In this document: piece after piece, positions 3,915 to 37,344 of the stretch | Layout: the number at the start of each line of letters is the position of its first letter | Numbering within the stretch: position 1 is the stretch's first letter | From: a virus | Lineage: Duplodnaviria > Heunggongvirae > Uroviricota > Caudoviricetes | IMG/VR virus record: IMGVR_UViG_2778261692_000005 | Strand: one strand, 5' to 3' | Length of the DNA stretch: 37,344 nt | Position numbers and translations under genes: made by a program | Notes under the pieces: generated by a model | Told to the model about the DNA's origin: nothing | What the model saw: the letters and a program-made list of their open reading frames with translations, nothing else | Database searches by the model: none

Positions 3915-5099
3915 ATGAGTGAAACTCGTTTTCATGGTGCCCGTGTTACGGAAAATACCGACCTGGTAACAGCGATTAACGATGTTGATTCCAGCGTTAT
4001 CGGTATCGTGGCAACGGCGGATGATGCGGACGCGAAGTTGTTCCCGCTGAACAAGCCCACACTGCTGACCCGCGTCAATGACGTGCTGGGAAAATGCGGA
4101 ACAACGGGGACGCTTTATCGTGCGCTTAAGGCCATCGCAGACCAGGTGAGCACAAAGGTGATCGTCGTTCGCGTGGCTGAACACAAAGAAGAAGACGAAA
4201 AGACGCAGGATCAACTGGTTATCGGTGGTTCTGAGGATGACGGCAGCTATACGGGGATGTATGCGCTGCTTGTTGCAGAGCAGGATGAAAGCATCGGATA
4301 CCGTCCGCGTATTCTGGCCGCGCCGGAGCTGGACACGGAGGCGGTGACAAAATCCCTGTGCGTGATTGCGGGTAAACTGCGCGCATTTGTGTATGCCTCA
4401 TGTCACGGCTGTAACACGATGGCTGAAGCGATTACCTACCGCCAGAAATTCAACGAACGTGAAGTGATGCTCTTATGGCCGGACTTCATCGCCTACAACC
4501 CGAAAAGTGGCGAAAACGAAACGTTCCCCGCGCCTGCTTATGCGTGCGGCCTTCGTGCGTACATTGACCATGAGCAGGGCTGGCACAAATCGCTGTCCAA
4601 CGTTCCGGTTAAAAATGTGCTGGGGATGTCGAGGCATGTGTTCTGGTCGTTGCAGGCCGAAGACAGCGATGCCAACAGCCTCAACAACAAAGAAATCACG
4701 ACCATTATTCGTCGCAACGGGTTCCGCTTCTGGGGCAACCGCACACCGGAAACGAACGCCTACATTTTTGAGGTGTATACCCGAACCGCACAGGTGCTGG
4801 CTGATTCAATTGCGGAAGCGCAGTTTGAAACCATCGACAGTCCACTGACGCCTGCGAACGTGAAGGATGTTATCAGTGCCATCAGGGCAAAACTGGATTC
4901 ACTGGTGACTGCCGGGAAACTGATTGGCGCGGAGTGCTGGTATGACGTGGTGGATAACAGCACCACGGATTTACGTCAGGGGCGTGTGCGTATTCGCTAC
5001 AAATATACGCCTGTTCCCCCGCTGGAAGACATGGAGCTTTACCAGACGTTTACTGATGAATACTTTGAACCCGCATTTGCGGTGCTGGGAGGTGCCTGA
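3915..5099 (+). CDS. FI: contractile tail sheath protein
   Basis: 394 aa; N-terminus MSETRFHGARVTE...FPLNKPTLLTRVND parallels P2 FI (…HGVQV…FPLNKPVLIT); RBS AAGGGG. Confidence 0.9.
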   Translation: MSETRFHGARVTENTDLVTAINDVDSSVIGIVATADDADAKLFPLNKPTLLTRVNDVLGKCGTTGTLYRALKAIADQVSTKVIVVRVAEHKEEDEKTQDQLVIGGSEDDGSYTGMYALLVAEQDESIGYRPRILAAPELDTEAVTKSLCVIAGKLRAFVYASCHGCNTMAEAITYRQKFNEREVMLLWPDFIAYNPKSGENETFPAPAYACGLRAYIDHEQGWHKSLSNVPVKNVLGMSRHVFWSLQAEDSDANSLNNKEITTIIRRNGFRFWGNRTPETNAYIFEVYTRTAQVLADSIAEAQFETIDSPLTPANVKDVISAIRAKLDSLVTAGKLIGAECWYDVVDNSTTDLRQGRVRIRYKYTPVPPLEDMELYQTFTDEYFEPAFAVLGGA

Positions 5100-5611
5100 T
5101 GGCTGTGCCAAAACATCTTCGCTTTTTTACGCTGTTTGTGGATGGTGAAAACGAAGTGGGTAAGGTGACGTCCGTCACTCTGCCTAAGCTGACGCGCAAA
5201 ACCGACAGCTACCGGGGTGGCGGCATGATGGGGGCGGTAAGTATTGATCTCGGTCTGGACGACTCCGCGCTTGATGCGAGCTTTGTCATGGGGGGCGCAG
5301 TTCGTGAGCTGTTCCTTAAGTATGGCGGCACGATTGACGGCACGCTGCTGCGTTTTGCGGGTGAATACTACACCGATGCAGAAAGCGACCTGTATGAAGT
5401 CGAAATGCGCGGACGCGTGACGGAAATTGATATGGGGGAAGCCAAACAGGGCGAAGCCACATCACACACTTACGCCATTAAAAACACCTACTACAAGCTG
5501 AGTGTTAACGATCGTCCGTTGTGGGAGATTGACCTGCTGAACTTCATTTACCGGAAGGACGGCAAGGACATTGTGCCCGATCGCATCCGTTCCGCGCTTG
5601 GGCTTGGCTGA
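5099..5611 (+). CDS. FII: tail tube protein
   Basis: 170 aa, start overlaps FI stop (TGATG); recognised as the P2 FII tail tube family. Confidence 0.88.
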   Translation: MAVPKHLRFFTLFVDGENEVGKVTSVTLPKLTRKTDSYRGGGMMGAVSIDLGLDDSALDASFVMGGAVRELFLKYGGTIDGTLLRFAGEYYTDAESDLYEVEMRGRVTEIDMGEAKQGEATSHTYAIKNTYYKLSVNDRPLWEIDLLNFIYRKDGKDIVPDRIRSALGLG

Positions 5612-5665
5612 TAAGTAATATGCAGGCGGCGCAGTGCGTCGCCTCTGACTGAAAGGAGTTTCCTG

Positions 5666-6031
5666 ATGAAAGAGACGAAAAACATCGATACCGAAAACAC
5701 GGTAGTTGCTGACACTGTGAAAGAAACCAGTGAGCGTGGCGTAAAACTTACCCAACCAATTGAGCGAGGCGGCGAAAAAATCACGTATGTGGAGATCACC
5801 GGGGCTATTGAGCAGGCTGGATCTCTGCGAGATTTGTCGCTGTCTGATGTGCTGAATCTGAAAGCGGAATCCATGTTTACGCTGCTGTCACGCGTGACAT
5901 CACCGCGACTGGATGAAGTGACGATCAAAAAAATGGCATCCCGTGACTTTATTCAGTTATGTGTGGTTGCCGTAAATTTTTTGAGCGGTGCGGACTCTGG
6001 CGGGAAGAACGAACAGGCGACGGAAGCCTGA
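5666..6031 (+). CDS. E: tail assembly chaperone E
   Basis: 121 aa, RBS AAAGGAG; position between tube and tape measure; contains slippery TTTTTTG near the 3' end. Confidence 0.8.
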   Translation: MKETKNIDTENTVVADTVKETSERGVKLTQPIERGGEKITYVEITGAIEQAGSLRDLSLSDVLNLKAESMFTLLSRVTSPRLDEVTIKKMASRDFIQLCVVAVNFLSGADSGGKNEQATEA

Positions 6032-6195
6032 TCACGGTTGTGTGCTTTGAGCACATAGAAGACTTTGTGGCAGATATTGCCGTTATTTTTAACTGGTCGC
6101 CCGCCGAAATCTTCATGATGACGCCCGGCGAAGTGGTTAGCTGGCGTGAGCGGGCGGCACTTCGCAGCGGGAATGCAGACAATGAAGACTCTTGA
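5666..6195 (+). CDS. tail assembly chaperone E+E' fusion made by programmed -1 frameshift at TTTTTTG (about 5977-5983)
   Basis: The -1 frame ORF 5959-6195 overlaps the E 3' end and continues past the E stop; heptamer T TTT TTG is in the correct phase for a -1 slip. Confidence 0.6.
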
Positions 6196-8989
6196 TATCC
6201 GGGTCGCTTTCAGCGCCGTTGACAGGCTGACCCGGCCTGCCGAAAACGCCCGCCGCCTGATGGGGCAGTTTGGTGACTCCATCCAGCGAACGCAGGGGGC
6301 GATCAAAAATCTCGAGCGTCAGGCGCGTTCATTTGAGCGCGCCCGCGACGCTGTCAGTAAAGCGGATGCGGGTATCGTGAAAGCACGACGCCAGCTTAAC
6401 GCCCTTAATCAGTTACAACGCACGGGTACAGTGCTCAGCGAAAAACAACAAAAGCTGATGCAGCAGTTAAGCACCCGGCTTGAACGCCTGAATGAATCGC
6501 GCACGCGGGAAATTCAGAAAATGCGGGAGCTTGGCGGAGAGCTGAAACGCCACGGCATTTCCCTGACAGGCAGCGATAACACCATCCAGCAGGCCATCAG
6601 ACGCACCGAACAGTACAACAACCAGCTTGAACGCGAACGGCAGGCGCTTGCGCGTGTAACGCGGGCGCGTGAGCGGTATTCGCGCGCGCAGGAAACAGCG
6701 GGAAAACTGAAAACAGGTGGTGCACTGGCAATTGGTGCGGCAGCGGCGGGCGGCTATGCTGCCGGGCGTTTTTTGCAGCCTGCGATCGGGTTCGGCAAAG
6801 AGATGTCCCGCGTTCAGGCACTGACGCGAATCGACCAGAACAGCCCGCAGTTTAAGGCGCTGCGTGAGCAGGCGTTAAAACTTGGCTCTGAAACGCAGTT
6901 CACCGCAGGCGATGCCGCCAGTGGACAGGCATTTCTTGCAATGGCTGGCTTCACTCCGCAGGCCATTCAGGCTGCGCTTCCCGGCGTGCTGAGCATGGCA
7001 ACGGCTGGCGGTATGGATCTCGGCGAGACGGCAGATATTGGCTCAAATATCCTGACGCAGTTCGGCCTTTCTGCTGACCAGATGGACCGGGTCGGTGACA
7101 CACTCACCGCAGCGTTTACCCGTACCAACACTGACCTTCGCGCACTGGGCGAAACCATGAAATATGCAGGTCCGGTGGCGGGTAAGCTGGGAATATCGCT
7201 GGAGCAGGCCGCAGCGATGGCGGGCGTGCTGGCGAATATGGGCATCAGAGGGAGTGATGCCGGGACGGCAATGCGTGCCAGCCTGGCTCGTCTGGCATCA
7301 CCGCCAAAGGCGGCGGCAGAAGCTCTGAAAGAGCTGGGCGTGTCCGTCTCGGATGCCAGGGGCAAAATGCGCCCGATGGAAGATCTGCTGGCTGACCTTT
7401 ATAAAGCTACCCGCAAATACGGGGAAGTTGACCGGGTATCCTTCTTTAAGGACATCGCCGGGGAAGAGGCTTTCACATCGTTTATGGCACTCGTTGATGC
7501 GGCGGGTGACGGTTCCTTACCCAAACTGAGAAAAGAACTTGAGGGCGCACGCGGTGAGGCTGAACGCACGGCAAAGGTTATGGCCGACAACCTTGATGGC
7601 GACCTGAAAAATCTCGACAGCGCATGGGAAGGTCTTCGTATTCGCATCAGTGATCTGGTTGACGGTCCGCTGCGTTCTGTCACGCAGTGGCTAACACGGG
7701 TGGTCTCAAAGGTGACGGTACTGGCGCAGGCCCATCCTGTACTGACGCGCCAGCTACTGATTGCAGGCGGTGCGCTGCTGGCAGTGACTGCAACCGTAGG
7801 CTCGTTGTCGCTTGCTCTTGGTGTGCTTGCTGGCCCGCTGGCAAAACTGCGTCTTGGTTTTTCCCTCCTGACCGGATCAATGAATGCTGTCAGGCTCCTG
7901 CCAGCACTATGGGGAATGGTGACGGGTTCCGTTTCTTTGCTGGGAGGTGCTATCGGGGCGCTGTTCAGTCCGGTTGGTCTTATCGTGGCTGCGCTTGCCG
8001 GAGCTGCCATTCTTATCTGGAAATATTGGGATCCCATCAGGGCATTTTTTGCCGGGGTGTTCAGCGGAATTATGGAAAGGCTGACCCCGTTGCGCGAAAC
8101 CTTTGAACGGTTTGGTCCTGTTTTTGACGCAATCGGAAGCGGGATCAGCCAGGTGTTTAACTGGTTTAAATCGCTGCTGTCACCGATGGAGTCCAGCAAG
8201 GAAACGCTGGATAAATGTACCAGTGCTGGCGAGATATTCGGTAACGTTCTTGGCGGTGCGTTACAGCTTGTTCTGACACCTGCAAAAATGCTGCTGGATA
8301 CGCTGGCGTGGATACTTGAAAAACTTGGCGTCCTTCCGGATGAAGCGGAAAGGGCGCGCAAGAAAATCGAAGACGCACAGCGTGCGGCCATTCTTCAGGA
8401 CAAGGTTGCCTTGCTTCAGGGGGACCTGGCGAAAATCAATCCGCCGAAGCCTGTGGAAAATGGCAATGGCACCGGAGGTGATAAACCCAAAGACAACAAA
8501 CCGCTCACAGACAGCAATACCGGTACACTACGCAGACTCAGCAAAATTGCTGATAACACAGGTAAGCTGGTTGATGAGACGAAAAAACGCATTGGCCCCG
8601 GCGATATTGTCTTTAAGAACCTGCCCCGCGCACTTGCTGTTCGTGGGGAGTGGCAGGAGCGGAAGATTGCGCAGGTCAGTAAGCCTGCCCCCGCAATTAA
8701 TATTACACCCGTGGTCCCGGCTCCGCTGCCTCCGGCGCTGGTCCCTGTTGTTGCGGCCAGCTCCCGCCCGGTGGCGGAGGCTATACGATCTCCAGTGGCA
8801 TCAGTTCCTGTAACTTCCCGTAACCGGGAGCCTGTTGCCTCCGGATTTGGTGGTGAAATTCATGTTCATCTGCATAACGTTGTTACGCAGAATCCCCGCG
8901 AACTGGCGAAACTGGTCGGTGAAATGGTCAGGGCAGAAATGGAACGGCGCGCCCGTGCCGGGCGTGGCAGTTTTTACGATAAAGATTGA
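6182..8989 (+). CDS. T: tail tape measure protein
   Basis: About 940 aa, coiled-coil N-terminal half, Gly/Ala-rich TM-like central segments, located after E/E'. Start uncertain (GTG 6146, ATG 6173 or ATG 6182). Confidence 0.85.
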   Translation: MKTLDIRVAFSAVDRLTRPAENARRLMGQFGDSIQRTQGAIKNLERQARSFERARDAVSKADAGIVKARRQLNALNQLQRTGTVLSEKQQKLMQQLSTRLERLNESRTREIQKMRELGGELKRHGISLTGSDNTIQQAIRRTEQYNNQLERERQALARVTRARERYSRAQETAGKLKTGGALAIGAAAAGGYAAGRFLQPAIGFGKEMSRVQALTRIDQNSPQFKALREQALKLGSETQFTAGDAASGQAFLAMAGFTPQAIQAALPGVLSMATAGGMDLGETADIGSNILTQFGLSADQMDRVGDTLTAAFTRTNTDLRALGETMKYAGPVAGKLGISLEQAAAMAGVLANMGIRGSDAGTAMRASLARLASPPKAAAEALKELGVSVSDARGKMRPMEDLLADLYKATRKYGEVDRVSFFKDIAGEEAFTSFMALVDAAGDGSLPKLRKELEGARGEAERTAKVMADNLDGDLKNLDSAWEGLRIRISDLVDGPLRSVTQWLTRVVSKVTVLAQAHPVLTRQLLIAGGALLAVTATVGSLSLALGVLAGPLAKLRLGFSLLTGSMNAVRLLPALWGMVTGSVSLLGGAIGALFSPVGLIVAALAGAAILIWKYWDPIRAFFAGVFSGIMERLTPLRETFERFGPVFDAIGSGISQVFNWFKSLLSPMESSKETLDKCTSAGEIFGNVLGGALQLVLTPAKMLLDTLAWILEKLGVLPDEAERARKKIEDAQRAAILQDKVALLQGDLAKINPPKPVENGNGTGGDKPKDNKPLTDSNTGTLRRLSKIADNTGKLVDETKKRIGPGDIVFKNLPRALAVRGEWQERKIAQVSKPAPAINITPVVPAPLPPALVPVVAASSRPVAEAIRSPVASVPVTSRNREPVASGFGGEIHVHLHNVVTQNPRELAKLVGEMVRAEMERRARAGRGSFYDKD

Positions 8990-34387: not shown

Positions 34388-34591
34388 TTAGCTGTTAGCC
34401 AAAGCGTCTTTTAACATCGCCACAAGGTTTACTTCAGGCTTTTCCATTTTGGCGCGTTTGGGGCGGATAATAATTCGACCGTCAGCCAACATCTTTTTGC
34501 ATGTATTAAGAGGGATACCTGTTATCTCTGCATATTTCTGCAGGGATACATAGGGGGCATTCACATTGATATTGATGGTTATACCTGACAT
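34388..34591 (-). CDS. cox: Cox/Apl-like HTH excisionase-regulator
   Basis: …YVSLQKYAEITGIPLNTCKKMLADGRI… parallels the P2 Cox HTH region (…YQEFAKLIGKSTGAVRRMIDKGKLP…); RBS AGGAGG. Confidence 0.65.
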   Translation of the reverse strand: MSGITININVNAPYVSLQKYAEITGIPLNTCKKMLADGRIIIRPKRAKMEKPEVNLVAMLKDALANS

Positions 34592-34607
34592 CCCACTAGC
34601 CTCCTGA

Positions 34608-34814
34608 TCAGGAAGATTTGTTTTGTTCTTTCTGGGTTAGCTCTAGGCCGCGAAGGAAGATCATGCGCGCCATGTTAGAGGATGAGCGTTGTTCTTTAGC
34701 TGCCATTTCATCAATGACGGCTCGCTCCTCGAGGGACAGCCGAAGTGCCAGTCTTGGACCTGTGGCGGTGTTACGCGGAATGCGTGATCTGGTATCGTGA
34801 AGAACTTGTTTCAT
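34608..34814 (-). CDS. ribbon-helix-helix (Arc/CopG-like) regulator, first gene of the early operon
   Basis: …RLALRLSLEERAVIDEMAAKEQRSSSNMARMIFLRGL… has the beta-strand/helix/helix pattern of RHH proteins; no SD (possibly leaderless). Confidence 0.5.
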   Translation of the reverse strand: MKQVLHDTRSRIPRNTATGPRLALRLSLEERAVIDEMAAKEQRSSSNMARMIFLRGLELTQKEQNKSS

Positions 34815-34889
34815 AGTGGTATATTGTGATCATCTAATAGCTCGTGAAATCATTTTGGTATCAAAAAAGATACCTGTCAAGGTTTTTGT
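34815..34889. promoter_or_regulatory. divergent immunity-region promoters/operators between the early operon (-) and repressor (+)
   Basis: 75-bp AT-rich region with perfect inverted repeat GGTATC-N6-GATACC (about 34848-34865) and TGATCA palindrome. Confidence 0.45.
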
Positions 34890-35294
34890 ATGAAAAATGA
34901 TATTGGTCAGCGGTTGCGTGAGGAAAGGGAAAGATTGGGACTTAGTCAAGTTGCCATGAGCGACATTGGTGGAGTCAAAAAGCTAACTCAGCTTAGATAT
35001 GAGAAAGGAGATAGCTTTCCTGATGCTGCGTATTTGGCAGCGCTGTCTCGTTTTGGCCTTGATGTTCAGTATGTTGTGTTGGGAATTCACTCACCTGAAA
35101 CTTATAACGATGATGAGCAGGAGTTGATTACTCGCTTTCGAGCAGCTTCGTTAGATGTGAAAAATGCGGTGATTGGGGCTTTAAAAGGTGCGATCAGTGA
35201 AAAGGAAACTCAGCCATCAGGACGTGAGTTAAATATTTCTGGTGGTAATAACCGTATCGCTGGTCGTGACTATAACGAAACTAAGGGTAGGTGA
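34890..35294 (+). CDS. XRE-family HTH immunity repressor (C/CI-like)
   Basis: …IGQRLREERERLGLSQVAMSDIGGVKKLTQLRYEKGDSFPDAAYLAALSRFGLDVQYVVLG… is a classic HTH_XRE; transcribed divergently from the early operon and followed by int. Confidence 0.8.
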   Translation: MKNDIGQRLREERERLGLSQVAMSDIGGVKKLTQLRYEKGDSFPDAAYLAALSRFGLDVQYVVLGIHSPETYNDDEQELITRFRAASLDVKNAVIGALKGAISEKETQPSGRELNISGGNNRIAGRDYNETKGR

Positions 35295-35309
35295 TAGTAG
35301 GGAGGTGAC

Positions 35310-35960
35310 ATGGCCGTCAACTCAAACGGTTCAAACAATCGCGTTGCTGGGCGTGATTTTCACGAAAAGAATATTCAGATAGAGCGATATGATGGTTCTC
35401 ATACCGTCAATATCGCAATCCCTTCGAATAATGATGATGACGATCGCCCTTTGCTTAAGGCTCAGCGTAAGGAGCTAAATAGCTTGGTTGCTGCTATTGC
35501 AGAAGCTAGCAATACTGAAGCGTTTATTATTTGGCAAAAAGTACATGCGGAGATTGGTGTAGCTGGTATTGATGATATGACAGTAAATCAATATAAAACA
35601 GCGGAGAGTTTTCTGCATGCAATGCTTGAGCGATGTAAAGATCATGATGCCTGTAAGGCTCTTGTAAGTTTATTACTACGTAACAGTGAAGACTGTGGAC
35701 TTCGACAAAAACTTCTGCGGTATTGCCATATCAATTTCGGTACAGGACGTTTAAACGATCTTACTCGTTCTCAGTTACAGTCTGCATTGTCGTGGTTAGA
35801 GCAACAATCGGCATCAAGCCACACAGAGAGTTCGACCTTACCAGAAGTCCGACTACGTGCTTCAGAATTAATCCGACTTTATCCAAAAGAAATAATATTC
35901 TTTATCTGCGTAGGGGTTTTGGTAGGCGGTGTCATTTCTAGGGCGTTTTTTAATTTGTAA
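35310..35960 (+). CDS. membrane-anchored cargo protein (216 aa) of unknown function in the lysogeny operon
   Basis: RBS GGGAGG; C-terminal TM helix IIFFICVGVLVGGVISRAFF; N-terminus repeats the repressor C-terminal motif; AT-rich. Confidence 0.65.
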   Translation: MAVNSNGSNNRVAGRDFHEKNIQIERYDGSHTVNIAIPSNNDDDDRPLLKAQRKELNSLVAAIAEASNTEAFIIWQKVHAEIGVAGIDDMTVNQYKTAESFLHAMLERCKDHDACKALVSLLLRNSEDCGLRQKLLRYCHINFGTGRLNDLTRSQLQSALSWLEQQSASSHTESSTLPEVRLRASELIRLYPKEIIFFICVGVLVGGVISRAFFNL

Positions 35961-35989
35961 TCTTACTTGAGCTAAATTGAGGTAATGAT

Positions 35990-36337
35990 ATGAAAGTAAA
36001 AAAGGTTCAACTATTAGTTACTTTTTTATCTATGTTTTCTTTTTCCGCCGTCGCAATGCCTTTTAAAACTATTGAACGTGAGAGTTTCAATGGGGTATGG
36101 CCATTTAATACTGATGAGGTTCAATTACAGTGTCTTGATGGTAATCCTTATGTGATGAATTTTGACGATAATAAGTTATATGCACTTACAGGTTTGGCTC
36201 GAATAAAAGGTAAAACATTTGGTGCGTTACCGTTAGATAACAATAATCCATTTTGGCTAGATAATGATGCCGCCCCAGGGTTAAAAAAGAGTCTGGGGGA
36301 TGTCACTAAGGCTGCATTTGATTTATGTGATAAGTAA
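35990..36337 (+). CDS. secreted/periplasmic cargo protein (115 aa) with signal peptide and two Cys
   Basis: MKVKKVQLLVTFLSMFSFSAVA signal peptide; mature domain with C…C pair; tentatively DUF2511-like from memory. Confidence 0.6.
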   Translation: MKVKKVQLLVTFLSMFSFSAVAMPFKTIERESFNGVWPFNTDEVQLQCLDGNPYVMNFDDNKLYALTGLARIKGKTFGALPLDNNNPFWLDNDAAPGLKKSLGDVTKAAFDLCDK

Positions 36338-36342
36338 CTAAA

Positions 36343-37344
36343 ATGTCGGTTCGTAAGATTCCATCAGGTAAATGGCTTTGCGAATGTTATCCCTACGGGG
36401 CATCGGGAAAACGCATTCGTAAACAGTTTGCGACAAAAAGTGAGGCGCTCTCTTATGAGCGCCGTTTAATGAATAGTAGAGTTGGAGACGAGTTTCAAGA
36501 TGGTTCTGGTCCTCGTCTTTCTGAGTTGATTGCTCGTTGGTTTGAGATGTACGGTAAAACCTTGTCCTCTGGTGCAGAGCGCAAAGTCAAACTTGAGGCG
36601 ATTTGTTCCAGGCTGGGAGATCCATTTGCTTCTCAGTTTGACAAAAATATGTTTGCTACTTATCGGGAAAGAAGGCTATCAGGAGAATGGAATCCCAAGG
36701 GGAAGAAAAAACTTAGTGAAGCAACCGTTAATCGCGAGCAGTCATATCTACATGCTGTTTTTGCCGAACTGAAGCGCCTTGGGGAGTGGTCTGGTGAAAA
36801 CCCCCTGACTGGTATTCGCAAGTTTCGTGAGGAAGAAAAGGAACTGGCGTTTCTGTATGTAGATGAGATTGAACGCCTTCTGATTGCGTGTGATGAGTCA
36901 CGGAATAAAGATTTGGGGGTTGTTGTCCGTATTGGGCTTGCGACGGGTGCTCGGTGGAGTGAAGCAGAAGGATTAAAGCAATCTCAAGTACTGCCCGGTC
37001 GAATCACATTTGTTAAAACTAAAGGAAAGAAGAACCGCACTGTACCGATTTCACCTCAATTGCAGGCTATGCTTCCTAAAAAACGAGGAGCGCTATTTTC
37101 ACCATGTTATGAGGCTTTTGACGCTGCAATTAAGAGAGCGAAGATCGAGCTTCCTGATGGGCAATTAACTCATGTGCTACGTCACACGTTTGCCAGTCAT
37201 TTTATGATGCGGGGCGGAAATATTCTTGTGTTGCAAAAAATACTGGGGCATAGCGATATAAAAATGACTATGCGTTATGCGCATTTTGCTCCAGGTCATT
37301 TAGAGGCTGCTGTTGAATTGAACCCTTTTGACAATAGAGGGTAA
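36343..37344 (+). CDS. int: tyrosine integrase, P2 Int family
   Basis: 333 aa; …GKRIRKQF.TKSEA…, …LATGARWSEAEGL…, …VTFVKTKGKKNRTVPIS…, …HVLRHTFASHFMMRGG…LGH…MRYAHFAP…LNP match P2 Int including catalytic R…H-x-x-R…Y region. Confidence 0.9.
   Translation: MSVRKIPSGKWLCECYPYGASGKRIRKQFATKSEALSYERRLMNSRVGDEFQDGSGPRLSELIARWFEMYGKTLSSGAERKVKLEAICSRLGDPFASQFDKNMFATYRERRLSGEWNPKGKKKLSEATVNREQSYLHAVFAELKRLGEWSGENPLTGIRKFREEEKELAFLYVDEIERLLIACDESRNKDLGVVVRIGLATGARWSEAEGLKQSQVLPGRITFVKTKGKKNRTVPISPQLQAMLPKKRGALFSPCYEAFDAAIKRAKIELPDGQLTHVLRHTFASHFMMRGGNILVLQKILGHSDIKMTMRYAHFAPGHLEAAVELNPFDNRG

Follow-up and report, generated by a model that had tools for sequence, protein, structure and literature searches.

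In the fungal HET-S/NWD2 system and in the bacterial BASS pairs of Bell-domain and NLR proteins, one protein ends with a short motif with which the other begins, and the genes of the two are adjacent, collinear and closely spaced. To our knowledge, amyloid signalling of this kind has so far been linked to cell-death pathways of the NLR type in filamentous organisms. A second group of relevant systems comprises the phage anti-repressors P22 Ant, 186 Tum, RS1 RstC and VP882 Qtip, which bind or aggregate non-cleavable repressors; those we know of are soluble and off in the lysogen. Phage anti-repressors are treated further in PMC10432266, and the composition of bacterial BASS motifs, along with their length of about 25 residues, by Dyrka et al. 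(bioRxiv 10.1101/2020.01.06.895854). Flk (also RflH or ‘Fluke’) of Salmonella and Escherichia coli acts on the flagellar export switch, and its interaction with the cytoplasmic domain of FlhA was tested (PMC13344023). As regards the genes that accompany phage regulators, a hotspot for accessory genes between cI and int was described in K139-like, P2-related Vibrio phages (Rousset et al. 2022, PMC9122126), while YebY is part of the copper-linked yobA-yebZ-yebY operon of E. coli (PDB 7N0J; PMC8689200).

The locus considered here lies in a 37,344-nucleotide stretch of Caudoviricetes DNA from a P2-like E. coli prophage (IMG/VR record IMGVR_UViG_2778261692_000005), the whole of which we call the window. 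Sequence comparison indicates that its immunity repressor and the 216-aa product of the adjoining gene constitute a conserved immunity cassette of two genes, in which the 216-aa protein appears to be an obligate partner of this type of repressor. The features of the locus are:

34857..34874, no strand assigned: candidate operator, the perfect palindrome GGTATC-N6-GATACC, read from the sequence
34890..35294, plus strand: immunity repressor, 134 aa (Pfam HTH_31/HTH_3; PHROG transcriptional repressor families)
35229..35279, plus strand: C-terminal motif of the repressor, LNISGGNNRIAGRDYNE, residues 114-130 (alignment; homologues)
35292..35309, plus strand: junction of the repressor and 216-aa genes, TGA TAG TAG followed by GGGAGG, read from the sequence
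35310..35960, plus strand: motif-matched partner, 216 aa (phrog_5825, 4e-103; NCBIfam Flk, 8.6e-16; AlphaFold2)
35316..35366, plus strand: N-terminal motif of the partner, VNSNGSNNRVAGRDFHE, residues 3-19 (alignment to the repressor tail)
35883..35951, plus strand: tail-anchor transmembrane helix of the partner, residues 192-214 (hydrophobic C-terminus; helix in the AlphaFold2 model)
35990..36337, plus strand: cargo gene for a 115-aa secreted DUF2511 protein (Pfam DUF2511, phrog_2950, YebY match)
36343..37344, plus strand: tyrosine integrase, the last gene of the operon (Pfam Int_N and Phage_integrase)

The four open reading frames listed agree with the original prediction, which had read the 216-aa and 115-aa genes together as two-gene cargo inserted in the lysogeny operon between repressor and integrase. 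Comparison confirms that P2 itself has no gene between C and int, and the placing of both genes within the operon is supported by the failure to find any terminator-like site on the plus strand from the repressor to int. Both genes had also been called AT-rich, which is true of the 115-aa gene (35.3% GC) but not of the 216-aa gene which, at 41.3%, is close to its neighbours (43.7% for the repressor and 45.0% for int).

The repressor occupies the position of P2 C, divergent from Arc-like and Cox-like genes. In the AlphaFold2 model its XRE-type HTH (residues 5-64) is followed by two more helices (74-105) and a disordered tail (105-134). The palindrome sits in the 75-bp gap between the divergent Arc-like and repressor genes, where a promoter-like site on the minus strand overlaps it; it is found at an identical offset in all close relatives and is missing from phages of other immunity types. 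At the other end of the gene, the three consecutive in-frame stops rule out a read-through or frameshift fusion of the repressor with the 216-aa protein, the two genes being in the same frame here, although their relative frames vary at other loci. The Shine-Dalgarno sequence GGGAGG lies 4 nt before the ATG of the 216-aa gene.

The peptide that was proposed to be shared by the end of the repressor and the beginning of the next protein proves to be real. The two segments align with a BLOSUM62 local score of 62, compared with 29.0±4.8 for shuffled sequences (n=2000), none of which reached 62. When all six-frame ORFs of the 37-kb window are considered, the best non-self match of the repressor tail is the N-terminus of its neighbour, the next best scoring only 31. 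A compositional artefact, a concern raised along with the original prediction, is ruled out by these shuffles, by the window-wide scan and by the cognate permutation tests described below. At the DNA level, the direct repeat of roughly 70% identity that had been noted by eye is confined to a core of 25 identities in 34 nucleotides (74%); across the 17 aligned codons identity is 59%, and six of the ten identical residues are specified by differing codons, so that the likeness is one of proteins. Both copies of the motif lie in segments predicted to be disordered, with pLDDT below 50 for the repressor copy in the AlphaFold2 monomer. The repressor then ends in a short basic stretch, TKGR, while in the partner there follows a degenerate second motif unit, IQIERYDGSHTVNIAI, which is plainer in relatives (for example ..AGRDFHE..IGRDVLNITIP). 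A third motif-bearing protein, such as a separate inducer, was found neither in the window nor in B3.

In the AlphaFold2 model the first 43 residues of the partner are disordered, residues 47-174 form the helical Flk_N domain, and the tail anchor occupies residues 192-214 at the C-terminus. The claim that it has a single C-terminal membrane anchor is borne out by the predicted helix and by the fact that, in most relatives, the protein stops directly past it. From this single hydrophobic helix we infer a tail-anchored protein, the bulk of which would be cytoplasmic. The Flk_N assignment (Pfam PF27202) is precomputed for a 98%-identical protein (P0001) and for all listed homologues. The Flk_N region is weakly matched by PHROG families of Ant-type anti-repressors, and in one member of the family an Flk_N-like region is fused to a Rha domain.

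The C-terminal motif is kept in homologues of the repressor, whose tails nearly always finish in a basic cluster (KK, KKNK, RRRKTK or GKKRK). In the relatives examined, both P2-like and Mu-like, a motif-bearing membrane protein, whether of Flk_N type or other, comes next after the repressor with few exceptions; the few loci that have no matching partner include L169. Motif pairs are present in P2-like prophages of Enterobacterales and in Mu-like phages, including B3, BcepMu and KS10. In each of the P2-like relatives surveyed (from Klebsiella, Rosenbergiella, Mixta, Izhakiella, Enterobacter, Erwinia, Hafnia and Arsenophonus) the repressor ends in ..G.GNR[VI]AGRD[FY]NE.K and an Flk_N gene opening with the motif comes next. 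The homologous repressors of Mu-like phages have other tails and the downstream N-terminus is altered in step, as in the tail/N-terminus pairs FNGDISGQFAGNQIIN / FNGTAQGQFSSRDIIN, GQIAGGNIY / EQIAGRDIY and QQFNGPVGTVTSGDVVN / QQFHDRVHQVAAGDIKN; matched pairs are also seen in B3 ORF18/20, BcepMu gp17/18 and KS10 gp13/12. Among 5,426 complete E. coli genomes, 511 carry the cassette, most of them being O157:H7 and other Shiga-toxin-producing strains, and it is found in hundreds of IMG/VR contigs. About 180 pairs were gathered for the present comparison, searches of IMG/VR and GTDB matching more than 500 stretches, while a profile search for homologous proteins listed close relatives that other searches had also given.

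The matching of tails to their own N-termini was assessed by permutation. With 15 motif classes, which are partly non-independent, the cognate score is 627 compared with 385±36 for permuted pairings; with 25 classes, again partly non-independent, it is 938 compared with 584±43, and in each case none of 20,000 permutations scored as high. Within the NRxAGRD class, with phylogeny uncontrolled, co-variation at the level of individual positions is weak (11 matches where 7.1 are expected, p about 0.06), the F/Y position giving 18 against 12.6 expected (p about 0.01). The aligned motif codons are 57% identical in nucleotides, and of the 159 identical residues 88 (55%) are specified by different codons. 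This shows selection to be acting on the peptides, as the earlier suggestion that both copies are maintained had supposed, and recent gene conversion not to be the cause of the similarity; a DNA direct repeat under gene conversion, or a recombination joint, is excluded by the same figures. The motifs, of about 17-21 residues, are enriched in N (3.65x), G (2.4x) and V (1.4x), slightly so in I (1.2x) and Q (1.14x), and depleted in L (0.11x), K (0.32x) and P (0.32x).

In most pairs the repressor and partner genes are spaced by -4 to +34 nt, with an ATGA overlap in 34 of the pairs, an arrangement that fits coupled translation of proteins acting together. The bodies of the partners vary, being composed of Flk_N plus a tail anchor, of two transmembrane segments, or of a coiled coil, a transmembrane segment and a small Cys-containing periplasmic domain. 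Across all of these the motif is invariably N-terminal and on the cytoplasmic side, which favours contact of motif with motif over a binding pocket in the body of the partner. KS10 gp12 has no obvious transmembrane segment, so membrane anchoring is not universal. Taken at the level of sequence, the matched pairs of P2-like and Mu-like phages suggest a previously undescribed link between lysogeny control and the membrane. No relevant account of the pair, of anti-repressors anchored in the membrane or of prophage amyloid motifs emerged from a search of the literature.

The idea of a two-gene cargo holds for the 115-aa gene only. The 216-aa gene, or one for another motif-bearing membrane protein, goes with this type of repressor, and the N-terminus of its product co-varies with the repressor tail, so it belongs with the repressor rather than with the cargo. 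The 115-aa gene, on the other hand, is by comparison of relatives swappable periplasmic cargo, separate from the cassette: between the conserved partner and int genes, the latter serving as the anchor at the far side of the slot, relatives have a DUF2511 gene, DUF8087, a BRCT/WYL-like protein of 288 aa, a membrane protein of 242-244 aa, a 73-aa ORF or nothing, and these contents are unrelated to one another. Secretion of the 115-aa protein, as claimed, is supported by a predicted signal peptide (residues 1-22, MKVKKVQLLVTFLSMFSFSAVA/MP, read from the sequence) and by its membership of the DUF2511 family (PF10709; 28.4 bits against a gathering cut-off of 21), which relates it to periplasmic YebY. 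The YebY structure matches it at E=0.0027, with both Cys residues (Cys48 and Cys113) aligned. PADLOC found no defence family among all the cassette and slot proteins, save for weak WYL-type matches of the Klebsiella 288-aa protein, and so recognised no anti-phage gene in the DUF2511 protein that fills the slot here. To distinguish the regulatory cassette from the true cargo slot before int matters when prophages are mined for defence genes. The role in superinfection exclusion or abortive infection that had been suggested for the two genes would leave the matched motif unexplained.

How might the matched motifs work? The reading we prefer, tentatively, is that the membrane-anchored partner binds the repressor tail by homotypic β-pairing, thereby tying the availability of the repressor to the membrane. 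Here physical binding, β-pairing and regulatory outcome are all things that we infer. The two copies of the motif would recognise each other in register, like the rungs of a small β-solenoid or an amyloid-like stack, and through this contact the tail-anchored partner would capture or titrate the repressor at the inner membrane. The availability of the repressor, and hence the maintenance of lysogeny or its induction, would then be set by the state of the partner, which would in effect be a membrane-tethered anti-repressor or sensor. Since one operon makes both proteins in the lysogen, simple sequestration would defeat repression unless the partner were limiting or gated.

Other readings of the same data have to be weighed against this one. 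The two peptides might not touch each other at all, both instead mimicking a site bound by a third party, such as a host protease or adaptor (for example ClpXP, Lon or FtsH), so that the membrane protein would be a decoy or competitor setting the half-life of the repressor. In a comparable way, lambda CIII shields CII from FtsH, and the C-terminal tail of the Mu repressor governs its degradation by ClpXP. Both copies are terminal and predicted to be disordered, as a degron would be, nearly all repressor tails close with a basic cluster, and the cassette is indeed present in Mu-like phages, yet a host receptor should favour one motif per host whereas the motif classes differ among phages of related hosts while matching within each phage; on balance we consider this explanation unlikely. 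It seems more doubtful still that the genes form a toxin-antitoxin-like or abortive-infection pair, in which the free membrane protein would be harmful and neutralised by the disordered tail of the repressor, loss of the repressor upon induction or attack by another phage freeing a membrane-active effector. The order and spacing are those of type II systems, with a DNA-binding protein having a disordered C-terminal tail first and a 4-nt overlap at many loci, the partners are small membrane proteins, and the holin and endolysin genes of Mu-like phages come immediately downstream of the pair. Against this, searches with Pfam, NCBIfam and PADLOC matched no family of toxins, holins or defence proteins, the helical Flk_N body is soluble and has a non-toxic host relative in Flk, and the tails of antitoxins are normally unlike any segment of the toxin, which leaves the matched motif unexplained.

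There are two further explanations. Were both genes simply independent conversion or exclusion cargo, the shared peptide would be a functionless leftover of a duplication or recombination joint. That accessory genes are known to occupy the stretch from repressor to int in P2-related Vibrio phages (PMC9122126), and that the third gene, of 115 aa, is variable, accord with this idea, which is nevertheless very improbable given that the 216-aa family is fixed beside this type of repressor in two unrelated groups of phages, and that the motif is kept in both genes, and co-varies within pairs, where synonymous sites are near saturation. Least probable is that the 216-aa protein is a phage copy of Flk that alters the flagellar type III secretion switch of the host, a lysogenic conversion of motility that could, for instance, block flagellotropic phages. 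The Flk_N domain and tail-anchored topology are common to both, but the match to the Flk equivalog (NF007987/PRK10715; 58.1 bits, E=8.6e-16) covers residues 37-166 only and does not approach the curated cut-off of 353 bits, and host Flk proteins are of 300-490 aa, lack the motif and begin with a different N-terminus (MQPxSGP...), which is absent from the 216-aa protein. Moreover, the motif pairing recurs with partners that have no Flk_N.

Homotypic pairing of repressor tail and partner may also be put in a stronger form, which we regard as unlikely: that a prion-like templating switch controls lysogeny in temperate phages of Proteobacteria. A signal from the membrane or envelope would cluster or expose the N-terminal motif of the sensor and so nucleate an in-register β-stack, which would recruit the matching repressor tail and remove the repressor from DNA; the motif, being specific to a lineage, would serve as a private code and block cross-talk among co-resident phages. 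If this were true, amyloid signalling would be extended to gene regulation in phages of unicellular hosts, including a prophage of E. coli O157:H7. Should the motifs pair at all, they would constitute a new link between a transcription factor and the membrane, might be the first signalling pair with matched motifs to lie outside NLR systems, and could find use as orthogonal tags for interaction. The cassette is a concrete and testable candidate for the off-switch of the small repressors, lacking an autocleavage domain, of P2-like and Mu-like phages. Its 17-residue handle and conserved partner gene are open to deletion, swapping and transplanting, and its presence in the long-sequenced laboratory phages B3, BcepMu and KS10 means that experiments can begin at once.

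When the locus is compared with known systems, the DUF2511 gene occupies a variable slot between regulator and int, like the hotspot of the K139-like phages, but here the slot lies beyond the partner gene rather than directly after the repressor, and the window holds no known defence gene. Its product shares with YebY a Pfam family, small size, secretion and both Cys residues; the relationship is, however, distant and the phage-borne gene has no CopC/CopD-like neighbours. With type II toxin-antitoxin operons the likeness is one of architecture only, a DNA-binding protein with a disordered C-terminal tail preceding a coupled second gene; no toxin can be recognised, the leading gene encodes a phage immunity repressor, and sequence mimicry is foreign to such systems. 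Flk similarly combines an Flk_N helical domain with a C-terminal tail anchor, but the phage protein is about half as long, has another N-terminus, is encoded in the lysogeny operon and is always paired with a repressor. As with the anti-repressors, a small phage protein is set against a small XRE-type repressor without an autocleavage domain; unlike them, the 216-aa protein is co-transcribed with the repressor, membrane-anchored and bears a copy of the repressor tail.

The amyloid-signalling pairs share with the cassette the placing of a C-terminal and an N-terminal motif across adjacent, collinear, close genes, and a motif that is family-specific yet matched within each pair. Their motifs are β-prone, rich in G, N, Q, V and I and poor in K, P and L; those described here are rich in N, G, V and I and poor in L, K and P, with Q hardly raised, and shorter, at about 17 residues as opposed to about 25. 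In those pairs the C-terminal motif belongs to a membrane-targeting effector of Bell/HeLo type and the N-terminal one to an NLR (NACHT/NB-ARC plus repeats). Neither is involved here, the XRE repressor and the small tail-anchored protein with its Flk_N domain taking their places, and the hosts are not filamentous bacteria but unicellular Proteobacteria and their phages. By analogy, then, the gene architecture of the cassette resembles that of amyloid-signalling pairs, while the partner proteins differ.

The window is a P2-like prophage (Peduoviridae, Xuanwuvirus). Escherichia phage 520873 matches the region 34800-36400 at 97.7% identity, and 511 of 5,426 complete E. coli genomes contain the region 35200-36400, nearly always at 99% identity or more; many of these are O157:H7 and other Shiga-toxin-producing E. 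coli. In the RefSeq entry of phage 520873 (NC_049344, our locus L001) the genes for the 216-aa partner and the DUF2511 protein are unannotated (4510-5535), int is split into two CDS and the partner matches as three pieces, which suggests frameshifts or sequencing errors.

Lysogeny region of the window (coordinates, strand, feature)
34388-34591, minus: Cox-like gene
34608-34814, minus: Arc-like gene
34890-35294, plus: XRE-type repressor gene
35310-35960, plus: 216-aa ORF (the partner)
35990-36337, plus: 115-aa ORF
36343-37344, plus: int

As stated in the original prediction, C and int are adjacent in P2, with no genes between them. No terminator-like site was found on the plus strand between repressor and int, which is consistent with a single operon. 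The minus-strand early operon (34388-34814) starts with two small regulators, a 68-aa Arc-like ribbon-helix-helix protein and a 67-aa Cox-like protein, whereas that of P2 has Cox alone. A perfect palindrome, GGTATC-AAAAAA-GATACC (34857-34874), lies 16 nt 5' of the repressor start codon and overlaps a promoter-like site on the minus strand. Its presence in all close relatives and absence from phages with other repressor tails make it the probable operator of this immunity type.

Residues 114-130 of the repressor (LNISGGNNRIAGRDYNE) align with residues 3-19 of the partner (VNSNGSNNRVAGRDFHE). The claim that the repressor C-terminus and the following N-terminus have a peptide in common holds: the alignment scores 62, against 29.0±4.8 in 2000 shuffles, and as no shuffle reached 62 the similarity is not a compositional artefact. 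When the repressor tail is compared with every six-frame ORF of the 37-kb window, itself aside, the partner N-terminus scores highest (62, next 31), and the motif was not found elsewhere in the window. The DNA repeat of about 70% identity, noted by eye, is seen in the motif core (25/34 identical) but not over the 17 aligned codons, where identity is 59% and six of ten identical residues are encoded by different codons. The two genes share a reading frame in the window, but three consecutive stops (TGA TAG TAG) lie between them, and elsewhere the pair is found in different frames, which rules out a read-through fusion.

P2-like prophages of Klebsiella, other E. coli, Rosenbergiella, Mixta, Izhakiella, Enterobacter, Erwinia, Hafnia and Arsenophonus were compared. 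In each, the repressor ends in ..SG.GNR[VI]AGRD[FY]NE.K and is followed, some 10-35 nt downstream, by a Flk_N gene starting with the same motif. The slot between the partner gene and int is variable; its gene lies at 35990-36337 in the window and at 5647-6513, 5840-6097, 4653-5387 and 4713-5441 in the related loci L002, L008, L015 and L020, respectively.

Contents of the slot before int
DUF2511: window (35990-36337) and Rosenbergiella
DUF8087: other E. coli
288-aa protein with BRCT domain and weak WYL-type matches: Klebsiella, Enterobacter soli
242-244-aa membrane protein: Mixta, Hafnia
73-aa ORF: among the relatives compared
Nothing: Arsenophonus

What had been read as a two-gene cargo is therefore one regulatory partner and one true cargo gene. 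The cargo reading stands for the 115-aa DUF2511 gene, which is ordinary variable cargo, but not for the 216-aa protein, which follows the repressor in all the P2-like prophages compared and is its regulatory partner. This division agrees with GC content, the partner (41.3%) being near the repressor (43.7%) and int (45.0%), and the DUF2511 gene at 35.3%. A variable slot between lysogeny regulator and int is known from K139-like P2-related Vibrio phages (PMC9122126). The 115-aa protein has a signal peptide, matches DUF2511 at 28.4 bits (cut-off 21) and phrog_2950, and is distantly akin to periplasmic YebY (PDB 7N0J, E=0.0027), with both cysteines aligned. A PADLOC search assigned neither it nor the 216-aa protein to a defence family. 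In two degrading endosymbiont genomes both halves of the pair are decaying together: in Symbiopectobacterium (L019) the repressor tail has no RD residues (..AGNNFHE) and the partner is frameshifted, and in an Arsenophonus endosymbiont (L022) the partner is truncated.

The pairing extends beyond P2-like phages. Repressor homologues about 50-65% identical in the HTH domain have quite different G/N/Q-rich tails with a basic cluster at the end. Three are found in Mu-like transposable prophages, where the next gene again encodes a Flk_N tail-anchored protein, with an N-terminus that has altered in step with the tail of the repressor.

Repressor tails and partner N-termini in Mu-like prophages
Pectobacterium: tail FNGDISGQFAGNQIIN, partner FNGTAQGQFSSRDIIN
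Gilliamella: tail GQIAGGNIY, partner EQIAGRDIY
Pseudomonas: tail QQFNGPVGTVTSGDVVN, partner QQFHDRVHQVAAGDIKN

Two IMG/VR scans with repressor alignments gave at least 160 more loci; matching each repressor with the next ORF yielded 178 pairs among the matches listed, with gene gaps mostly of -4 to +34 nt and a 4-nt overlap in 34 pairs. Partner bodies are of three types: some have Flk_N and a tail anchor, some are 2-TM proteins (about 150 to 195 aa), and some, of 260-340 aa, combine a coiled coil, one TM segment and a small Cys-containing periplasmic domain. In all three the motif lies at the predicted cytoplasmic N-terminus. Well-known sequenced phages with the pair are B3 (ORF18/ORF20; L109, 1944-2947), BcepMu (gp17/gp18; L110, 1950-3145) and KS10 (gp13/gp12; L111, 2001-3059). 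B3 ORF20 belongs to the NRxAGRDF motif class, like the E. coli prophage, but its 2-TM body is quite different. In KS10 gp12 no TM segment is obvious; the paper on the KS10 genome gives no significant match for it and is silent on the shared peptide. In four Mu-like phages (L023, L025, L027 and L112) the pair lies just upstream of holin, endolysin and spanin genes on the same strand, separated from them by one to a few small genes, several encoding lipoproteins or membrane proteins. There are exceptions, such as L169, where the gene after a repressor with a typical tail (SFHGPVGQAAQGDIKN...) encodes a signal-peptide protein that lacks the motif, and L168, with two repressor genes in tandem. The likeness originally noticed is real and more general than was visible from the window alone: repressor and motif-matched membrane partner form a new and widespread immunity cassette.

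Pairs were clustered into classes, and cognate tail/N-terminus scores compared with 20,000 permuted pairings.

Cognate versus permuted pairings
15 classes: cognate sum 627; permuted 385±36; 0/20,000 reach 627; cognate first in 7/15
25 classes: cognate sum 938; permuted 584±43; 0/20,000 reach 938; cognate first in 8/25

The cognate is among the top three in 17 of the 25 classes, although that set includes four loci that are pseudogenes or mis-pairs. The classes of these tests are not wholly independent of one another. Within the NRxAGRD class, position-level co-variation is weak. In 18 pairs, with 307 aligned motif codons, the nucleotides are 57% identical, and 88/159 identical residues are encoded by different codons. 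The suggestion that synonymous differences point to maintenance of both copies is thereby borne out, and codon comparison indicates that selection acts on the motif peptides. Recent duplication or gene conversion is ruled out as the source of the likeness, since the motif codons are close to synonymous saturation. In the motif segments N (3.65x), G (2.4x), V and I are over-represented, and L (0.11x), K, P and M under-represented. Many partners have at least two consecutive motif-like units, for example ..AGRDFHE..IGRDVLNITIP, and BcepMu gp18 has three to four.

In the predicted model the repressor has an HTH of five helices (residues 5-64) and two more helices (74-105), and pLDDT is below 50 in its tail (105-134). 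Almost all repressor tails close with a basic cluster directly after the motif (KK, KKNK, RRRKTK, GKKRK; proteins P0126-P0229), TKGR in the window (35280-35291), which might serve as a protease tag or make contact with membrane lipids or DNA.

It is quite possible, though we put it tentatively, that homotypic β-pairing joins the membrane partner to the repressor tail, so that the repressor is captured or titrated at the inner membrane. Two like disordered terminal peptides would either take equivalent positions in a repeating in-register structure or be rivals for one site. Partner bodies vary under a constant motif logic, and the folded domain of the repressor is far better conserved than the motif. 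Neither would be expected of a co-evolving pocket in one body or the other, and both speak for direct motif-to-motif pairing. It is unlikely that the two peptides share a third-party site, for instance a protease degron for which the partner is a decoy, as the motifs are lineage-specific yet matched within each pair. Were the partner to capture the repressor through its tail, control of lysogeny would depend on the state of a membrane protein, and the periplasmic domains of some partner variants suggest a signal that can originate outside the cytoplasm.

A toxin-antitoxin-like or abortive-infection pair would also suit the operon architecture, but is improbable, as it lacks a recognisable toxin and would not account for the mimicry; still less probable is an independent cargo gene bearing a relic repeat. 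Least credible of all is a partner that mimics Flk and acts on flagellar export. With just 134 clusters at 50% identity in 1.8 billion representatives, the Flk_N family is small, and it splits into phage-type proteins with variable N-terminal motifs and host Flk proteins (P0303-P0373; about 29 of the 134 family representatives), a separate subgroup of 300-490 aa with a different N-terminus (MQPxSGP...) and no motif. Host Flk may derive from the phage Flk_N family, or the reverse. In one protein, P0368, a Flk_N-like region comes after a phage Rha regulatory domain.

In our literature search no repressor was described as having a motif-matched membrane partner. Known anti-repressors are soluble and silent in the lysogen, unlike the present pair, which differs also from type II toxin-antitoxin systems with their recognisable toxin. 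In the amyloid-signalling gene pairs, fungal HET-S/NWD2 and bacterial BASS, an effector C-terminal motif matches the N-terminus of the NLR encoded next to it by a collinear gene a short distance away; the motif is rich in G/N/Q/V/I and poor in K/P/L (bioRxiv 10.1101/2020.01.06.895854). The repressor-partner pair may or may not work like these; it is not a member of their family, since it lacks the defining Bell/HeLo effector and NLR and its motif is shorter. Nevertheless, the amyloid-signalling pair is the nearest known architecture, sharing with ours the gene-pair rule and most of the composition bias.
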